Shown here: piece after piece, positions 1 to 4,292 of the stretch
How positions within the stretch are numbered: the first letter of the stretch is position 1
Layout: every line of letters starts with the position of its first letter
Source of the DNA: a virus
Taxonomy: Duplodnaviria; Heunggongvirae; Uroviricota; Caudoviricetes
Length of the DNA: 4,292 nucleotides
Strand: one strand, 5' to 3'
Virus record (IMG/VR): IMGVR_UViG_3300000059_000174
Location: 1-4,292 of that record
The notes under the pieces: model-generated
What the model saw: only the letters and a program-made list of their open reading frames with translations
The model's database searches: none
Told to the model about the DNA's origin: nothing
Made by a program: the position numbers and the translations under genes

Positions 1-48
1 TGGCACAAAGCGGACAACCACGCTAGCTCTACCCTGTGCCACAAAATG

Positions 49-507
49 TCAATTTGCATCTGAACTAATGCACTTTAATCTCGTCACTTCAATAAATACC
101 GAACATCCCCCCTGATAAAACGACAATATGCGCTGCATAACTTCGCTTTTACGACACTCAGTACAAATCATATTATGACGCCTGTCGTAACGACGTATTT
201 CTCCATCAGGTAATGACCAGATAAGGTCCGGATCAACCGCAGATGGTTTCTTCAGCTTTGCCCTTGAGAGCTTTTTACGGGCATTTTGCAAGTCCTTACG
301 CGCCTGTTCAGACGGGAATAACCCGTAACCAGAGTCGTATACATCGCCACTGGCAACCAGCTCTCTGGCCAGAACGCTCATCAGATATCTTGTTGCCCCA
401 GTTTTAGCTTCCAGTTGTCGTAACGTATCGCGCCCACTCTGGCGTACGAGTTCAACAACCTGCCCTTTAATTTTTTCCCGCTCTTCTTGTGTAAAAACTT
501 TTGCCAC
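49..507 (-). CDS. hypothetical protein (152 aa), last gene of the minus-strand early/replication operon in this window
   Basis: Uninterrupted ORF starting at GTG (505-507 on the complement), preceded by a strong Shine-Dalgarno AGGAGGG 3-4 nt upstream; stop TGA at 49-51. It begins 40 bp downstream of the initiator stop on the same strand. No Walker A motif, so it is not a DnaC-type loader. It has a C-terminal His/Cys cluster (HNMICTECRK ... GGC ... KC). Family not recognised. Confidence 0.55.
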   Translation of the reverse strand: MAKVFTQEEREKIKGQVVELVRQSGRDTLRQLEAKTGATRYLMSVLARELVASGDVYDSGYGLFPSEQARKDLQNARKKLSRAKLKKPSAVDPDLIWSLPDGEIRRYDRRHNMICTECRKSEVMQRILSFYQGGCSVFIEVTRLKCISSDAN

Positions 508-547
508 AAGCCCTCCTGAAAATTACCTCATGACCAGAAATTAACAC

Positions 548-1618
548 TTACCCCCTGAAGCCCGGCGGAATTTCGTTATCCGGTTCAGAAATATGATTCA
601 CACAACGCTGGTTGTTCGTGCCGCTTACCGGGAGCAACCAGGGGTTCTCAAAATTCCGGTCCGGTCCAAAAAACGTCGTCGCTCGCTGAACAAATTCCGT
701 TCCCGTTTTCCCGGTAGCCGCCAGGTATCTTGCGTAACGCCTCACACCATCCAGCATGGCCTCTGGTGGCACCCCCTCGCGTAATCTGGCCTTCCAGGCA
801 CTGAAAGCGGATTTCTTCGGGTTTGCCCCGGCACGCAACGGGTACTCCCGCCAGACCTGTTCGAACACATCCGGATAATCCACTCGTCCCACAGACTGCC
901 CGGTGTTTTCCGGGACTACCCGATCGGCTTCCCGCTGAATGGCGGAATCGGCTTCAGGCTGCTGCAGTTGGTGTGATTGCTCCGGCCTTGCGGTCATCAC
1001 CTGCTGCACAGCGCCCGAATCGGCTTTCAGCGCATACGCTGAATCGGCTTCCGGTGTCGTGCCTGCTGGCTGACCAGGATTGACGGTCTGAACATCCCCT
1101 GCCTGGTTCGTGGCGTTTTTTACGCCATGGATCATAGTGTTTTGATCTTCTTGATCTGTATCTTTATCTGTATCTTTATCTGTCGTGACTCGTCGTGACA
1201 TGTGCGTGACATTTCGTGACGCGCCGTGACAATCGCCATTTTGTTCCCGCTTTCTTTCCCTCTCTCGCTGCGCCCTCTTGCGCTCTGCAGGAGATTTTGC
1301 GGTTTGCGAAATATTGCCGTTGTCCTCTTTAAGCACCTGGCGTTTTTCCCATCCAGTGATTAAATCACCATCAAGTACCCGCCCCTGCATCGTCTGCAAA
1401 ATTGAATCAATTACCTCTTCTGTCACGTCGAGCGCACTTGCCAAATCTTCTGTCGTGACATCAATGTGACCTCGCGTGACATTTCGTGACGCGCTCACCA
1501 GGAGGTGGATATACACTGCCATCACTGTTGCAATTGGCTGCCCTGACACCCTGGCAATTGTTCGCCACTTAGGGTCATTTGGCATGTCATGCCATAATCT
1601 GAGCCAGGCGTTAGCCAT
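548..1618 (-). CDS. phage replication initiation protein (O / phi80 gp15-like) with a DnaT-like (primosomal protein I-like) C-terminal domain
   Basis: Long ORF (track 548..1624). I place the start at the ATG on 1616-1618 because of the SD AAGAGGTGA just upstream; the GTG at 1622-1624 lies inside that SD. The N-terminus (MANAWLRLWHDMPNDPKWRTIARV...) looks like a winged-helix DNA-binding domain. The middle is a low-complexity acidic linker (DKDTDKDTD, PEADSA repeats). The C-terminus (...YPDVF...VNHISEPDNEIPPGFRG) closely matches, from memory, the C-terminus of E. coli DnaT (...VNTVSEPDSQIPPGFRG). Phased iterons lie inside the gene. It sits where ydaU/O sits in Rac-like prophages. Confidence 0.8.
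   Translation of the reverse strand: MANAWLRLWHDMPNDPKWRTIARVSGQPIATVMAVYIHLLVSASRNVTRGHIDVTTEDLASALDVTEEVIDSILQTMQGRVLDGDLITGWEKRQVLKEDNGNISQTAKSPAERKRAQRERERKREQNGDCHGASRNVTHMSRRVTTDKDTDKDTDQEDQNTMIHGVKNATNQAGDVQTVNPGQPAGTTPEADSAYALKADSGAVQQVMTARPEQSHQLQQPEADSAIQREADRVVPENTGQSVGRVDYPDVFEQVWREYPLRAGANPKKSAFSAWKARLREGVPPEAMLDGVRRYARYLAATGKTGTEFVQRATTFFGPDRNFENPWLLPVSGTNNQRCVNHISEPDNEIPPGFRG
922..1052. repeat. four dispersed copies of the 9-10-mer (G)A(A)TCGGCTT(C) within the initiator linker-coding region
   Basis: GATCGGCTTCC at 922-932, GAATCGGCTTC at 945-955, GAATCGGCTTT at 1017-1027 and GAATCGGCTTCC at 1041-1052. They encode the repeated peptide motifs PEADSA / KADSG / READR on the minus strand. 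Confidence 0.4.
1144..1230. repeat. candidate replication origin element: two GATC sites, a 12-bp tandem repeat (2.5 copies) and five CGTGAC iterons at 10-11 bp phasing
   Basis: GATC at 1144-1147 and 1153-1156. ATCTGTATCTTT at 1154-1165 and 1166-1177, with a partial copy at 1178-1183; this block is about 70% AT by hand count. CGTGAC at 1184, 1194, 1205, 1215 and 1225, spaced 10, 11, 10, 10 bp, so all on one helix face. The whole element lies inside the initiator coding sequence, as ori-lambda lies inside gene O. Confidence 0.6.
1422..1498. repeat. second iteron cluster: (C/T)GTGAC at 1454, 1465, 1475, 1485, a degenerate fifth copy near 1494, and an inverted copy GTCACG at 1422-1427
   Basis: The 20-mer CGTGACATTTCGTGACGCGC is identical at 1205-1224 and 1475-1494. 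Spacing is again 10-11 bp. It lies in the coding region for the N-terminal domain of the initiator; the protein accordingly carries ASRNVT twice. Confidence 0.55.
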
Positions 1619-1689
1619 ACTCACCTCTTCTGATACCGAATCTTTTTACTCACGAGTTGCCGGAAGCGATTCGATATGGCTATTGTCAG

Positions 1690-2115
1690 TCAATGTACTG
1701 CCACAGCATTTCCTGCCGGACCACCACGGTTCATCTGATTGAAACCGGCGATTGCCACTGCGACAAAATCATCAGCGTCTCTCACCAGTCGCTCCCGCGT
1801 CTCCACCAGCTCCCGAAAATAAGCTGAACTGTGGCTGCGCATTCTGGCCACCAGCAAAGGTGGCATTGCCTTTTCGATTGCTGGTAACAACGCCTGAATT
1901 TTTTCAACTGCATCAGGGGTGTCTTTCTCCACCCAGCGGAAAATTTTCTGAGTATTGCGAGCCAGGGCTTCCGGATGGCTGTCGTCGTACAGTTCAGGAA
2001 ACGTCATACCCAGTTCGAAATAAGCCCTGGTTATCTCGGCTGCCGGAACTTTTTCACCGTCCGGATGCGCCCAAGCATTCATCGCCATGCGGATGTGTTC
2101 ATGCTTGATTTTCAT
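1690..2115 (-). CDS. ydaT: YdaT-like protein (cII-position early regulator of Rac-type prophages)
   Basis: 141-aa ORF beginning MKIKHEHI..., which I recall as the N-terminus typical of YdaT-family proteins. Its ATG overlaps the stop of the upstream cro-like gene (ATGA, 2112-2115), implying translational coupling. SD-like GGGAG lies 7 nt upstream. Synteny is cro-like, then this gene, then the initiator. Confidence 0.7.
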   Translation of the reverse strand: MKIKHEHIRMAMNAWAHPDGEKVPAAEITRAYFELGMTFPELYDDSHPEALARNTQKIFRWVEKDTPDAVEKIQALLPAIEKAMPPLLVARMRSHSSAYFRELVETRERLVRDADDFVAVAIAGFNQMNRGGPAGNAVAVH

Positions 2116-2372
2116 GAATCAACTCCCGCCACTTGCTGTGTGTTAGCCTGAAACTCAGCAGGCAAGCCGTCGTTTGGGTTGGGATAAATATCAGGGCGAA
2201 TTTCATGCGGGGTAACTTCCCAGCTCATTAGCTGACATAACGGAATTACCTGCTTTGGGGGAACGCCAAAGCTAAGCCATTGCCAAACAGTCTGTTGAGC
2301 GACCCCCATATAACGACCTATTTCAGCTTGAGAGAATTTCTGCCTAATTTTTTCGCGAGTGCTATCTAGCAT
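2112..2372 (-). CDS. ydaS: Cro/YdaS-like HTH DNA-binding regulator
   Basis: 86-aa ORF with a strong SD GAGGAGGG 4 nt upstream of the ATG (2370-2372 on the complement). It has an HTH segment SQAEIGRYMGVAQQTVWQWLSFGVPPK and the motif HEIRPDIYP that I associate with the YdaS/Cro-like family. It is divergent from the repressor gene across a 109-bp AT-rich intergenic region. Confidence 0.75.
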   Translation of the reverse strand: MLDSTREKIRQKFSQAEIGRYMGVAQQTVWQWLSFGVPPKQVIPLCQLMSWEVTPHEIRPDIYPNPNDGLPAEFQANTQQVAGVDS

Positions 2373-2481
2373 TTTGCCCTCCTCTAAGAACTATAGGCAA
2401 AAGACTACAATAAAAAACTGTACACAATCAACAGTTTTTTATTGTGATGCTTTTAACAGTATTTCCCTGTAAAATTAAACG
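2373..2481. promoter_or_regulatory. divergent promoter/operator region between the cro-like and repressor genes, containing the palindrome AAAACTGT-N9-ACAGTTTT (2414-2438)
   Basis: The region is AT-rich. It holds a perfect inverted repeat with 10-bp arms, AAAAAACTGT (2412-2421) and ACAGTTTTTT (2431-2440), around a 9-bp spacer. There is an extra ACAGT half-site at 2456-2460. A -10-like TAAAAT at 2470-2475 lies 7 nt before the repressor ATG. Exact -35/-10 pairs cannot be assigned with confidence. Confidence 0.6.
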
Positions 2482-2883
2482 ATGATGAACGCCTTAGAAG
2501 TATCTATGTACAGAATCAGCAAGCTTCTCCAAGAAACAGGATGGAGCCAGGCTGAGCTTGCTCGTAGAATTGGTGTGACACAACAAACTGTTCAACAATG
2601 GGTCAGCGGTAAAGCTACACCTAAAGCCTCAAGTTTGGATAAACTGGTTGAGGTTACAGGGCATCCATTGCATTGGTTTTTATTGCCTCCTGAAGAAGGT
2701 GAGCAAATCTTCACCCCTGATACGATGAAAATTGGTCCTCGCCAACGCGAACTGCTCCAGGCTTTTAGTGCGTTTCCAGAAGAAGACCAAGAAAAAATGC
2801 TTCAGGAAATCAAAGACAAGAAAAAATCAATGGAAGAAACCATTGCTCGATGGTTGGCGGCGCAAAAAATCCGCCGAGCGTGA
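2482..2883 (+). CDS. paaR2: short CI-position XRE-family HTH repressor (DicA-like / PaaR2-like), first gene of the regulator-antitoxin-toxin operon
   Basis: 133-aa ORF starting with tandem ATG ATG (2482, 2485) and no recognisable SD. N-terminal HTH: WSQAELARRIGVTQQTVQQWVSGKATPK. The C-terminal region (PRQRELLQAFSAFPEEDQEKMLQEIK...) resembles my recollection of DicA-type short repressors. There is no LexA/S24-type peptidase domain. The gene symbol rests on synteny and size only, not on an alignment. Confidence 0.8.
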   Translation: MMNALEVSMYRISKLLQETGWSQAELARRIGVTQQTVQQWVSGKATPKASSLDKLVEVTGHPLHWFLLPPEEGEQIFTPDTMKIGPRQRELLQAFSAFPEEDQEKMLQEIKDKKKSMEETIARWLAAQKIRRA

Positions 2884-2908
2884 CCAGTGAACAAAGAGGA
2901 GTTATGTC

Positions 2909-3100
2909 ATGAGTACAGCCCTTTCTCCGATAGTTTCAGAATTCGAAACTACCGAACAAGAAAACAGTTACAACGAATGGTTGCGCGCTAAAGTCGCGTC
3001 AAGCCTTGCAGATCCTCGCCCCGCAATACCGCATGACGAGGTGATGGCTGAAATGGAAAATCTTATTGCTCAAATTGCTGCGACTAGCGGGAGTGTGTAA
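2909..3100 (+). CDS. paaA2: type II antitoxin of a ParE-family toxin (PaaA2-like, 63 aa)
   Basis: 63-aa ORF with SD GAGGAG (2896-2901) 7 nt upstream of the ATG at 2909. Its stop TAA (3098-3100) overlaps the toxin ATG (3100-3102) by 1 nt (TAATG). It is small, acidic and helical in character and sits immediately upstream of a ParE-like ORF. The length matches the 63-residue PaaA2 as I recall it. Confidence 0.8.
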   Translation: MSTALSPIVSEFETTEQENSYNEWLRAKVASSLADPRPAIPHDEVMAEMENLIAQIAATSGSV

Positions 3101-3387
3101 TGCTACCCATTTTATGGCTACCATCTGCTCGCGATGATTTGCGTCAGATCGTAGCCTATATTGCCAAGGAAAATGTTCCAGCAGCTCGTAGACTAAAAAT
3201 ACGTATTGAAACGTCTGTTTTAGCCCTCTCAGAGCATCCATATCTATATCCGCCAAGTGATAGAGTATCCGGTTTGCGGGAAATTGTAGCTCACCCTAAT
3301 TATATCGTTTTGTACCGTGTAGCAGCTTCAAGCATTGAAATTGTAAATATTGTGCATGCCCGCAGACAGTTTCCCTTCCCTGCCTGA
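3100..3387 (+). CDS. parE2: ParE/RelE-superfamily toxin (ParE2-like)
   Basis: 95-aa ORF with the family-typical pattern MLPILWLPSARDDLRQIVAYIAKEN ... IVLYRV ... IEIVNIVHARR. SD GGGAG lies 6 nt upstream. It is translationally coupled to the antitoxin and followed 19 nt later by an intrinsic terminator. Confidence 0.85.
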   Translation: MLPILWLPSARDDLRQIVAYIAKENVPAARRLKIRIETSVLALSEHPYLYPPSDRVSGLREIVAHPNYIVLYRVAASSIEIVNIVHARRQFPFPA

Positions 3388-3405
3388 ACCGAAAGATTTT
3401 CACAC

Positions 3406-3429
3406 TCCCTCATACGAGGGATTTTTTTT
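3406..3429 (+). terminator. rho-independent terminator closing the repressor-antitoxin-toxin operon
   Basis: Stem TCCCTC (3406-3411), loop ATAC, stem GAGGGA (3416-3421), followed directly by eight T (3422-3429). On the minus strand there is no T-run after the hairpin, so it is unidirectional. Confidence 0.7.
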
Positions 3430-3445
3430 GCCAAAAAAACAATTT

Positions 3446-3470
3446 AAAACTGTTGACACCAAACAGTTTT
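3446..3470. promoter_or_regulatory. second copy of the operator palindrome AAAACTGT-N9-ACAGTTTT with an embedded -35 hexamer TTGACA (OL/PL-like site)
   Basis: AAAACTGT at 3446-3453, 9-bp spacer, ACAGTTTT at 3463-3470. The arms and spacing are the same as the site at 2414-2438. A consensus -35 TTGACA sits at 3453-3458. The -10 is unclear (TAGTTT-like around 3477-3482). Confidence 0.55.
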
Positions 3471-3579
3471 TAATTGTAGTTTGTTTTCACAAACCACCCC
3501 GTCCCACAGAATGCAGGGCAATACTTCGAGTTACCAGGCAGTGGTCAGGGGTTAAGTAGCCAGCCCGAGGCGTAAGAAC

Positions 3580-3813
3580 ATGACGGCAGGGTTCAACTTT
3601 AATAACTATGCAGCAGGTTTTTGTTCCGCTACCCCGGCGTTAAGGGGAAATGAGGTCAGCATGGATACTATCGATCTTGGCAACAACGAATCTCTGGTGT
3701 GCGGCGAGTTCCCCAACCAGGACGGTACGTTCACCGCGATGACATATACCAAAAACAAAACGTTTAAAACCGAATCTGGCGAGCGTCGCTGGTTAACCAG
3801 AAACACTGACTGA
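3580..3813 (+). CDS. small hypothetical protein; more likely start at ATG 3661 (50 aa) than at 3580 (77 aa)
   Basis: The ORF is on the strand expected for transcription from the PL-like promoter. The internal ATG at 3661 has SD GAGGT (3652-3656) 4 nt upstream; the ATG at 3580 has only GAGG 9 nt upstream. Stop TGA at 3811-3813. No recognisable family. Confidence 0.4.
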   Translation: MTAGFNFNNYAAGFCSATPALRGNEVSMDTIDLGNNESLVCGEFPNQDGTFTAMTYTKNKTFKTESGERRWLTRNTD

Positions 3814-3824
3814 TGAGGCTGACG

Positions 3825-3983
3825 ATGGAATTTAAAGATTTACCTCCAGACACTCAGAAAATCGCCGCAGAAACACTGAAATCTCTCATTTTGGACGAGG
3901 AGACAGAAAAGGTAGAGCCAGCTAAAAAACTGGCTCAAGAAATCAGAGAAGCCTTTATTGCTCTTTATCAGTCTTCTCCATAG
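3825..3983 (+). CDS. small hypothetical protein (52 aa), not in the supplied ORF track
   Basis: ATG at 3825 with SD GAGG (3815-3818) 6 nt upstream, 12 nt after the previous stop. It translates to MEFKDLPPDTQKIAAETLKSLILDEETEKVEPAKKLAQEIREAFIALYQSSP, ending at TAG 3981-3983. The sequence is charged and helical in character. Confidence 0.4.
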   Translation: MEFKDLPPDTQKIAAETLKSLILDEETEKVEPAKKLAQEIREAFIALYQSSP

Positions 3984-4140
3984 AGGCTTTTTTTTCTTCT
4001 TCCAATATATTGCGAATTGTAATAACTGAATTGGCCGCCTCTGAAGGGGATGACATTTTGCCAGCCCGAATTAACTCAACTGTTAAGTTCAAAGCTGCAA
4101 CAGATGGATAGGTAAATGGGTTAATTAACTTGTCTGACAT
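3955..4140 (-). CDS. small hypothetical protein (61 aa from the SD-supported ATG)
   Basis: The track ORF is 3955..4152, but the ATG on 4138-4140 is preceded by a near-perfect SD GGAGGA with a 4-5 nt spacer (ATGGAGGATAAAATG), so I call the start there. The protein is MSDKLINPFTYPSVAALNLTVELIRAGK... Its 3' end overlaps the convergent 52-aa ORF by 29 bp. Confidence 0.5.
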   Translation of the reverse strand: MSDKLINPFTYPSVAALNLTVELIRAGKMSSPSEAANSVITIRNILEEEKKASMEKTDKEQ

Positions 4141-4292
4141 TTTATCCTCCATTTAGGTTCTGGGTTAGAAATGGAGACCAACACGCTGCTACGTGTGGTC
4201 GTGCGCCGGACACGGATAAGAATCCGGCACTGACAGTTTACTGAAAGGATATTTCCCTGAAAAGTCAGGGCATAACACGAAAGCGTACGGCG

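Follow-up and report, generated by a model that had tools for sequence, protein, structure and literature searches.

Two iteron arrays and an AT-rich run inside the initiator gene of a CP-933P/Rac-like lambdoid prophage form a candidate replication origin

Results

Two arrays of short repeats and an AT-rich run lie within the initiator gene

The DNA analysed here (the window) is a stretch of 4,292 nucleotides, positions 1 to 4,292 of the IMG/VR virus record IMGVR_UViG_3300000059_000174. It spans the part of a CP-933P/Rac-type lambdoid prophage that is devoted to immunity and early replication. An initiator gene of the replisome-organizer type lies on its minus strand at 548-1618 (356 amino acids), identified from the list of open reading frames (ORFs) and a match to phrog_3729. 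Read along the coding strand, this gene contains two arrays of a short repeat with the core GTCACG, array A (codons 45-57) and array B (codons 132-147), followed by an AT-rich run (codons 148-162) and an inverted repeat at 1104-1134. A reading of this DNA made earlier from its letters alone (the original prediction) had proposed that, along the direction of transcription, iterons come first and an AT-rich element second; this is confirmed here, array A being followed by array B and then by the AT-rich block.

On the plus strand the core reads CGTGAC. This hexamer occurs 10 times in the 4,292-bp window, both strands counted, where 1.43 copies are expected, and none of 200 dinucleotide shuffles of the window reached that number. 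Array B (1184-1230, minus strand) consists of five direct copies of GTCACG, seen on the plus strand as CGTGAC at 1184, 1194, 1205, 1215 and 1225. All five are exact, and five had been predicted; in plus-strand order they are spaced by 10, 11, 10 and 10 bp. Array A (1454-1490, minus strand) consists of four direct copies of (T)GTCACG; three are exact CGTGAC on the plus strand (1454, 1475 and 1485) and one is the variant TGTGAC (1465-1470). Their spacing in plus-strand order is 11, 10 and 10 bp, and the predicted period of 10-11 bp was thus measured in both arrays. The number of copies at 1454-1498 had been given as four or five. Four stand; the relatives carry four copies here and nothing that corresponds to the proposed fifth (GCGCTCAC, 1491-1498), which was abandoned. 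The gap between the arrays is 229 bp. The arrays share an identical word, which had been reported as a 20-mer and is 21 nucleotides long (1204-1224 = 1474-1494), and a further exact 11-mer (1179-1189 = 1449-1459) is found at the same offset of 270.

Array A encodes amino acids 45-57 (ASRNVTRGHIDVT), which in the AlphaFold model close the third helix and make up the loop and strand ahead of the helix-turn-helix. Array B encodes amino acids 132-147 (CHGASRNVTHMSRRVT), the start of a predicted disordered linker. A single inverted copy, 27-32 bp downstream of array A, is located at 1422-1427, where the plus strand reads GTCACG and the gene encodes D-V-T. This copy is present in many, not all, of the GTCACG-type relatives described below, with moderate synonymous conservation (0.62-0.90), and has no counterpart in CGAACG-type relatives. 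As it is not kept across lineages, its standing as a separate conserved element is doubtful.

The AT-rich run, the proposed DNA unwinding element, covers 47 bp directly after array B (1137-1183, assigned to neither strand). It had been described as a block of about 70% AT made of a 12-bp tandem repeat, and this description holds: the unit TCTTTATCTGTA is repeated 2.9 times at 1149-1183, where it encodes DKDTDKDTD, and the GC content is 0.32 over 60 bp and 0.27 at 1140-1180. By nearest-neighbour energy, 1140-1180 is the least stable stretch of 40 bp in the window (-44.7 kcal/mol versus a mean of -55.8 kcal/mol, standard deviation 4.2). Two GATC sites had been noted here. Those at 1144 and 1153 do lie in the block, and the cluster has a third member just outside it, at 1130. 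GATC is scarce in the window (8 sites versus 15 expected), and three of the eight fall within 27 bp (1130-1156). The cluster may reflect control of the origin by Dam and SeqA, the clustering test being post hoc. In enterobacterial relatives AGATCT is frequently found directly 3' of the (GATAAA)n run. The oriC 13-mer GATCTnTTnTTTT was also considered for the AT-rich run and rejected; the run has one match with two mismatches (1153-1165), and the window has 3 where 2.3 are expected.

The inverted repeat at 1104-1134 has the core TGGCGT-TTTTT-ACGCCA (1111-1127). Its perfect 6-bp stem was equalled in 12 of 200 shuffles. At the equivalent place, about 30-60 nt after array B, a CCCCC-N(3-7)-GGGGG hairpin that encodes PPxPPxG is seen in many relatives (among them loci L002, L009, L011, L012, L016, L017, L018, L026 and L028), and loci L015 and L021 have stems of 9-11 bp after the AT-rich run. 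Ori-lambda has a palindrome beside its AT-rich region, and the inverted repeat may be the counterpart of that palindrome, the evidence for this being weak. A hairpin after the AT-rich run was rejected as a conserved element, as only about a third of the relatives are individually unusual in this respect. The hairpin at 1104-1134 scores as terminator-like on the plus strand; sites of this kind are no commoner than expected by chance.

The layout is conserved in relatives of the initiator gene

An alignment of the N-terminal domain of the initiator (the N-domain) was scanned against one genome per bacterial species, and this gave 47 loci. Their hosts are Enterobacterales, Pseudomonas, Bordetella, Acidovorax, Aquitalea, Chromobacterium, Janthinobacterium, Massilia, Collimonas, Marinobacter and Sphingomonas, together with metagenome bins, for which the taxonomic labels are possibly wrong. 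At least 588 relatives on viral contigs were also counted. Both arrays and the AT-rich run were found at the same gene positions in about 34 of the 40 analysable relatives. The shared layout begins with four iterons in codons 45-57; after a gap of about 229 bp come three to five further iterons, and then a (GATAAA)n run. Array A has the same four copies and the same spacing in most relatives. Array B has three to five copies, and that of the window has two extra (21 bp, 7 codons). Copy number shifts in steps of 21 bp, which equal seven codons and two iterons; the variant found in E. albertii and O157 has two more copies in array A. Neighbouring copies are 10 bp apart in 108 cases and 11 bp apart in 32, and the gap between the arrays is mostly 227-229 bp (range 211-319 bp). 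A (GATAAA)n or (GATACA)n run directly follows array B in nearly all relatives, with a mean minimum GC content of 0.24 versus 0.55 for the genes.

The layout is kept across considerable protein divergence. The Pseudomonas phages phita81A and P7869 encode a protein that is 69.5% identical over window residues 3-140 in a translated search. Their genes carry four copies of GTCACG at nt 129-160 and four at nt 388-418, and their C-terminal halves are unrelated. Ralstonia is also among the hosts that keep the layout: Ralstonia phage Hennie, whose N-domain has 38% identity, carries nine copies of GCAACG in the same two places. Initiator residues 160-358 are common to Shiga toxin (Stx) phage and other coliphage initiators with a different N-domain, and phage PhiR5_2, which shares the C-terminal domain (C-domain) only, has zero copies of GTCACG.

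Among 5426 complete E. coli genomes, 2078 contain the N-domain and origin cassette (window 1100-1624). A genome holds as many as four copies, six copies in all are on plasmids, and the usual annotation is 'hypothetical protein'. In O157:H7 a variant that is 84-88% identical is fused to a DnaT-like domain, and its homology to the window begins in the AT-rich run (1154-1161). No second GTCACG cluster was found elsewhere in the whole genome of coliphage Tritos, which points to one origin.

Some relatives depart from this layout. Loci L032, L034, L042 and L044-L046 keep the N-domain and hold at most one or two degenerate copies of the AACG type ahead of the AT-rich run. In L032, L034 and L042, which are Ventosimonas and Entomomonas bins, the N-domain is accompanied by a long (GATAAA)n run, of eight units in L042. 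These array-poor loci may belong to prophages in decay, or their origins may get by with fewer sites. Two further loci, L043 and L051 (Serratia and Pantoea), have a GIY-YIG/T5orf172-like segment (..YVGISxNPWAR..) in place of the linker that follows the N-domain; they lack the usual arrays and AT-rich run, and show mild repetition of ACTACG instead.

Selection acts on the DNA of the arrays and of the AT-rich run

The hexamer GTCACG is read in three frames: as G TCA CG it encodes SR, as GTC ACG it encodes VT, and as GG TCA C or TGT CAC it encodes GH or CH. A repeated peptide therefore cannot explain the hexamer, and ASRNVT is the translation of a DNA repeat. When synonymous codons were permuted with the protein and the codon usage kept, a mean of 1.53 copies of GTCACG was obtained versus the 8 observed, a number reached in 0 of 500 permutations. 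The core was fixed beforehand for the window and for the 26 loci of the GTCACG type. The same outcome was obtained in about 34 of 40 relatives; for those of other types the core was the commonest hexamer ending in ACG, which inflates their results somewhat.

The original prediction had proposed that synonymous constraint be compared across homologous initiator genes. In a codon alignment of 21 GTCACG-type relatives, with only about 65% nucleotide identity, third positions in the array A hexamers were 95% conserved versus 55% in the other 118 codons (p = 2e-6), the codon alignments resting on 20-21 related, non-independent sequences. Third positions of array A were 90-100% conserved, and those in the spacers between hexamers about 35%. 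Across the first 175 codons, runs of conserved synonymous sites appeared only at the two arrays and at the start of the AT-rich run.

Codon choice in the AT-rich run is also distinctive. In the 14 codons after array B, aspartate is encoded by GAT in 91% of cases and lysine by AAA in 88%, versus 48% and 50% elsewhere in the genes. In genes with a GC content of at least 57%, the corresponding values are 91% and 85% in the AT-rich run versus 40% and 31% (Fisher p = 1e-15). The run is held AT-rich through codon choice, even in GC-rich hosts. Judged from the sequences compared, both arrays and the AT-rich run are kept by selection on the DNA, and the four tests agree. The earlier claim that the coding sequence accommodates a DNA signal, based on ASRNVT and DKDTDKDTD, is borne out by the synonymous constraint, the permutations and the codon bias. 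Odd linker peptides such as DKDTDKDTD would cost little in a stretch that is predicted to be disordered.

The cores of the two arrays switch together

The commonest hexamer of the gene differs among the 47 loci. It is GTCACG in 26, CGAACG in 8, GTAACG in 4 and possibly ACTACG in 2. Within one gene, both arrays share the same core, be it GTCACG, GTAACG, CGAACG or GCAACG. This indicates that one factor reads both arrays, and that its specificity has changed several times.

Other parts of the region are exchanged more freely. The C-terminal halves of the relatives are of at least five unrelated kinds. The next gene encodes a lambda-P-like protein, an IstB/DnaC-like protein, a DnaB-type helicase, a primase-helicase, a ParB-HTH protein or an unrelated product; varied downstream genes for helicases or loaders were noted at L002, L005, L007, L008, L021, L028 and L036, of which L007 and L008 have Phage_lambda_P genes. 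The homology breakpoint between variants falls in the AT-rich run. The N-domain is the only component that always accompanies the arrays, and the N-domain, the arrays and the AT-rich run are inherited as one cassette. The N-domain would thus be an economical candidate for the reader of the iterons, although linkage is not proof. We also looked for residues that determine specificity, and this attempt failed: sequences of the recognition helix do not fall into clean groups that follow the iteron classes. Class differences are clearest in the segment that array A itself encodes, where they are forced by the DNA.

The initiator protein

The initiator matches phrog_3729, 'replication initiation protein', with an E-value of 1e-257. 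Its ORF (548-1624) is open from a GTG at 1624, from which residues are numbered here; the start is likely the ATG at 1618, which matches the relatives and the annotation of phage Tritos. Near-identical genes (98-99%) are present in the coliphages Tritos, Evi and vB_EcoS-640R1, and in Tritos and vB_EcoS-640R1 the homologues are annotated as a replication protein. Tritos has a complete lambdoid genome of 46 kb, in which the homologue is the sole gene annotated as a replication protein. NCBI names many of these proteins 'phage replisome organizer', and many of the entries are 'partial'.

No Pfam hit to the initiator was above the cut-off. The phage_rep_org_N models PF09681 (E = 0.13, 12.8 bits, cut-off 23.3) and TIGR01714 (E = 0.016, 15.4 bits, cut-off 49.8) match weakly; these matches, below the cut-off, cover the whole model at residues 7-127. 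The lambda O family (Phage_rep_O, PF04492) gave no match to the initiator, even at E-values up to 10. The AlphaFold model has a mean predicted local distance difference test score (pLDDT) of 65, with 75-94 in the N-domain and less than 50 in the linker. In the model the N-domain (residues 5-97) has helices at 5-13, 18-27, 31-47, 58-65 and 69-79, then a hairpin at 80-91. It is followed by a basic helix (112-128), disorder (131-245), a helical C-domain (about 246-335) and a disordered tail. From the order of its secondary structures, the N-domain is predicted to be a winged helix.

The last 24 codons of the initiator gene (551-622, minus strand; ..VNHISEPDNEIPPGFRG; ..RCVNHISEPDNEIPPGFRG) encode a DnaT-like tail. 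The tail matches the NCBIfam DnaT model (E = 7e-4, positions 156-179 of 179) and, in phmmer searches, the DnaT chains 6AEP, 2RU8 and 9ZBT of the PDB (E = 3e-4 to 7e-3). The same tail is found on relatives with other C-domains (L017, L028, P0039 and P0049). The rest of the C-domain is a helical domain common to initiators of the HTH_36 type. Several related initiators carry the whole DNA-binding domain of DnaT (PF17948), whereas in the initiator of the window only the tail matches DnaT. A match of the profile of alignment A2 to the DnaT C-domain was discarded, being due to aligned relatives that carry PF17948.

Neighbouring genes

The initiator gene comes after a cro-like YdaS gene (2112-2372) and a cII-like YdaT gene (1690-2115), both on the minus strand. 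Gene O of lambdoid phages normally occupies the position after cro and cII. The initiator gene, and the arrays with it, is transcribed from the early rightward operon. Directly 3' of the initiator gene is a DUF977 ('Ren-like') gene (49-507, minus strand), and the window contains neither a helicase nor a loader gene. No partition ATPase/adaptor operon was found in the window or in the annotated relatives, and an Rfam search of the window gave zero RNA families.

On the opposite strand, facing ydaS and ydaT, are genes for a helix-turn-helix repressor (2482-2883), a PaaA2 antitoxin (2909-3100) and a ParE toxin (3100-3387), all on the plus strand. The trio at 2482-3387 is the paaR2-paaA2-parE2 module, which was described as a three-gene module with a bistable switch in prophage CP-933P of E. 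coli O157:H7 (PMC8630535). The published operator of YdaT is 5'-TTGATTN6AATCAA-3' (PMC9986795). A perfect match to it (TTGATTTTCATGAATCAA, 2105-2122) lies at the junction of the ydaS-like and ydaT-like genes. A YdaT operator within the origin was considered and rejected, as this sole good match in the window is outside the initiator gene.

Discussion

The arrays and the AT-rich run as a probable replication origin

We believe that the two arrays and the AT-rich run are the replication origin of this CP-933P/Rac-like lambdoid prophage, embedded in its own initiator gene. From sequence comparison we put the probability of this reading at roughly 80%. The conserved layout and the synonymous constraint both support the candidate origin, made of iterons and an AT-rich element inside the initiator ORF, that was originally predicted.

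We propose the following model for how such an origin could work. The winged-helix N-domain of the initiator would bind the iterons of 10-11 bp through their core, GTCACG. Copies one helical turn apart would place the bound proteins in line on one face of the DNA. Array B lies against the AT-rich tandem repeat, which would melt. Array A, 229 bp upstream, may provide a second binding platform; initiator oligomers on both arrays would probably bridge or wrap the intervening DNA, and this could aid the opening of the AT-rich run or control firing. The C-domain and the DnaT-like tail would then recruit the host machinery that loads DnaB with DnaC. We propose helicase loading through the host machinery because no phage loader gene follows the initiator gene. 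The tail, together with the lack of a downstream loader, suggests recruitment via host DnaB/DnaC or via the restart primosome, which is conjecture. How DnaT recruits DnaB and DnaC was left open in earlier work (PMC13377028). We infer every step of this model, that is, the binding of the repeats by the initiator, the opening of the AT-rich run, the cooperation of the arrays and the route of helicase recruitment.

Several points weigh against this interpretation. The arrays are inside the gene of the N-domain and are inherited with it, and co-variation alone does not prove that the N-domain binds them. A Foldseek search of the model against the PDB gave no match with E <0.001, and the top matches were generic winged-helix regulators. 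Six to eight relatives (L032, L034, L042 and L044-L046; L043/L051) are without clear arrays. The window is without a helicase or loader gene, which makes helicase recruitment a conjecture, and the origins of lambda and SPP1 work with a single array, whereas the window has two. Lastly, a literature search gave no binding, unwinding or autonomous-replication data for this initiator family.

In an alternative reading, array B and the AT-rich run alone are the origin, in line with the use of a single array by the proven origins of lambda and SPP1 (oriL). Array A, possibly with the inverted copy, would then be a regulatory site bound by the initiator and would stand apart from the unwinding machinery. 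It could serve autoregulation, block transcription inside the gene as a roadblock, or exert copy control if the arrays pair. We think this unlikely. It fits the position of array B, which stands alone in the canonical place against the AT-rich run, and it fits the gap of about 229 bp, which does not correspond neatly to a whole number of helical turns and ranges between 211 and 319 bp. However, array A matches array B in strength of conservation, whether judged by number of copies, spacing or synonymous sites, and its core changes together with that of array B. The two arrays were also never separated by recombination in the sampled relatives. A regulatory role is compatible with all of these observations.

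Could the repeats be something other than an origin? Plasmid R1 parC has two sets of 11-bp iterons, and two arrays of four to five short repeats of 10-11 bp do resemble such centromere-like sites. That the arrays are a partition or pairing site, or a site for another protein, is nevertheless very improbable. The element always lies within an initiator gene and beside an AT-rich run, and helicase or loader genes travel with it; its hosts are integrating lambdoid prophages; and neither the window nor most relatives have a partition ATPase/adaptor gene, L017 alone having a ParB-HTH gene downstream. It is hardly credible that the protein requires a repeated peptide (ASRNVT, DKDTDKDTD) and that the repeats in the DNA simply follow from it, with no DNA signal at all. 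ASRNVT...VT and DKD are conserved in the protein alignment, but in lineages with another core the same position is taken by a different peptide, such as NATERGRTQ, and array B and the AT-rich run fall in the predicted disordered linker. The reading of the hexamer in three frames, synonymous positions that are 95-100% conserved in the hexamers versus about 35% in the spacers, and codon permutations that preserve the protein and yield 1.5 copies versus 8 all argue in the same direction, as does the bias of the D and K codons to GAT and AAA, which is confined to the AT-rich run.

Within the reading of the two arrays and the AT-rich run as the origin, we also considered a more speculative proposal, to which we give a small but real chance. 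This is a bipartite, self-referential origin, in which array A forms part of the coding sequence of the DNA-binding domain, next to the helix-turn-helix, every alteration of its iterons would alter that domain too, and the arrays would loop the roughly 229 bp between them and so open the AT-rich run. If residues 45-57 touch DNA or shape the recognition surface, the site and its reader would change in one step. Such an origin would explain the concerted core switches and would offer a route to new origin specificities (replication 'immunity types'). The looping of about 229 bp would be a geometry not described for lambda or SPP1.

Significance

An origin inside the initiator gene is textbook knowledge. 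Neither the proposed origin nor GTCACG iterons were described in the literature searched, a collection that lacks much of the older work on phages. A paper on Eru-type Stx phages does not mention iterons or origins, and the literature on oriJ of Rac, on replisome organizers and on PF09681/TIGR01714 gave nothing on this origin. The cassette is common in prophages of E. coli and other Proteobacteria, yet it is mostly annotated as 'hypothetical protein' or 'phage replisome organizer'. Knowledge of the origin could provide a marker for typing prophage replication modules and a compact candidate replicon, and it could allow incompatibility or cross-activation to be predicted for co-resident prophages that share an iteron type. 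The gene is also a very clean natural case of a DNA signal overprinted on a coding sequence in three reading frames. Finally, a DnaT-like tail without a loader gene raises the possibility that the phage taps the host restart primosome for helicase loading.

Comparison with known systems

The tail of the initiator is like that of E. coli DnaT (primosomal protein I), the last 21-25 residues being nearly identical (..SEPDNxIPPGFRG). Outside the tail, the C-domain is a helical domain unlike that of DnaT.

The closest comparison for the arrangement as a whole is phage lambda. Ori-lambda lies in the middle of gene O and consists of iterons plus an AT-rich tract (PMC7466680). The Stx phages 933W and P27 have six-iteron origins, and the extra iterons add 13 amino acids to the Stx O protein (PMC7466680). 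As in ori-lambda, array B is in the inter-domain linker of the initiator gene, and the iterons give way directly to an AT-rich tract when read in the direction of transcription. As in Stx O, extra iterons add in-frame residues, here 7 amino acids per two iterons. The initiator gene has the same position after cro and cII, and in both cases the N-domain and the origin travel together, while the C-domain matches the helicase loader. The differences are equally clear. The initiator has no homology to lambda O (no PF04492 match). Whereas ori-lambda has 19-bp sites with dyad symmetry, the arrays are direct repeats of 10-11 bp with a core of 6-7 bp, and GTCACG is not palindromic. There are two arrays about 229 bp apart, one of them within the coding region of the DNA-binding domain, and a DUF977 gene stands downstream in the window in place of a P-type loader gene. 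The likeness to ori-lambda and gene O that had been proposed originally thus applies to the layout, with iterons and then an AT-rich tract inside the initiator gene, and not to a lambda O homologue or to 19-bp dyads.

OriL of the Bacillus phage SPP1 provides a second comparison. It is inside gene 38, combines direct repeats with an AT-rich unwinding element, and is bound by the replisome organizer G38P (PMC6316719). In gene 38 (L135, 539-640) we found four or five direct repeats of 11 bp (AGAAACGACAC-like) at mid-gene, directly followed by AT-rich tandem repeats of 9 bp (AACAATGAT). Short direct repeats and then AT-rich tandem repeats are also the layout of array B and the AT-rich run. An hhalign comparison of the N-domain alignment with the gene 38 protein gave no sign of homology to G38P (probability 1.1%). 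Unlike the initiator gene of the window, gene 38 has no upstream array that we could see. SPP1 also encodes its own loader and helicase. In addition to oriL it contains another origin at a different place, whereas in Tritos a second cluster is absent. An arrangement of two arrays, one of which lies within the codons of the DNA-binding domain, looks to be undescribed, and we saw no counterpart to it in lambda or SPP1. By analogy, we propose that this origin would work like ori-lambda and SPP1 oriL, with an initiator from outside the lambda O family.

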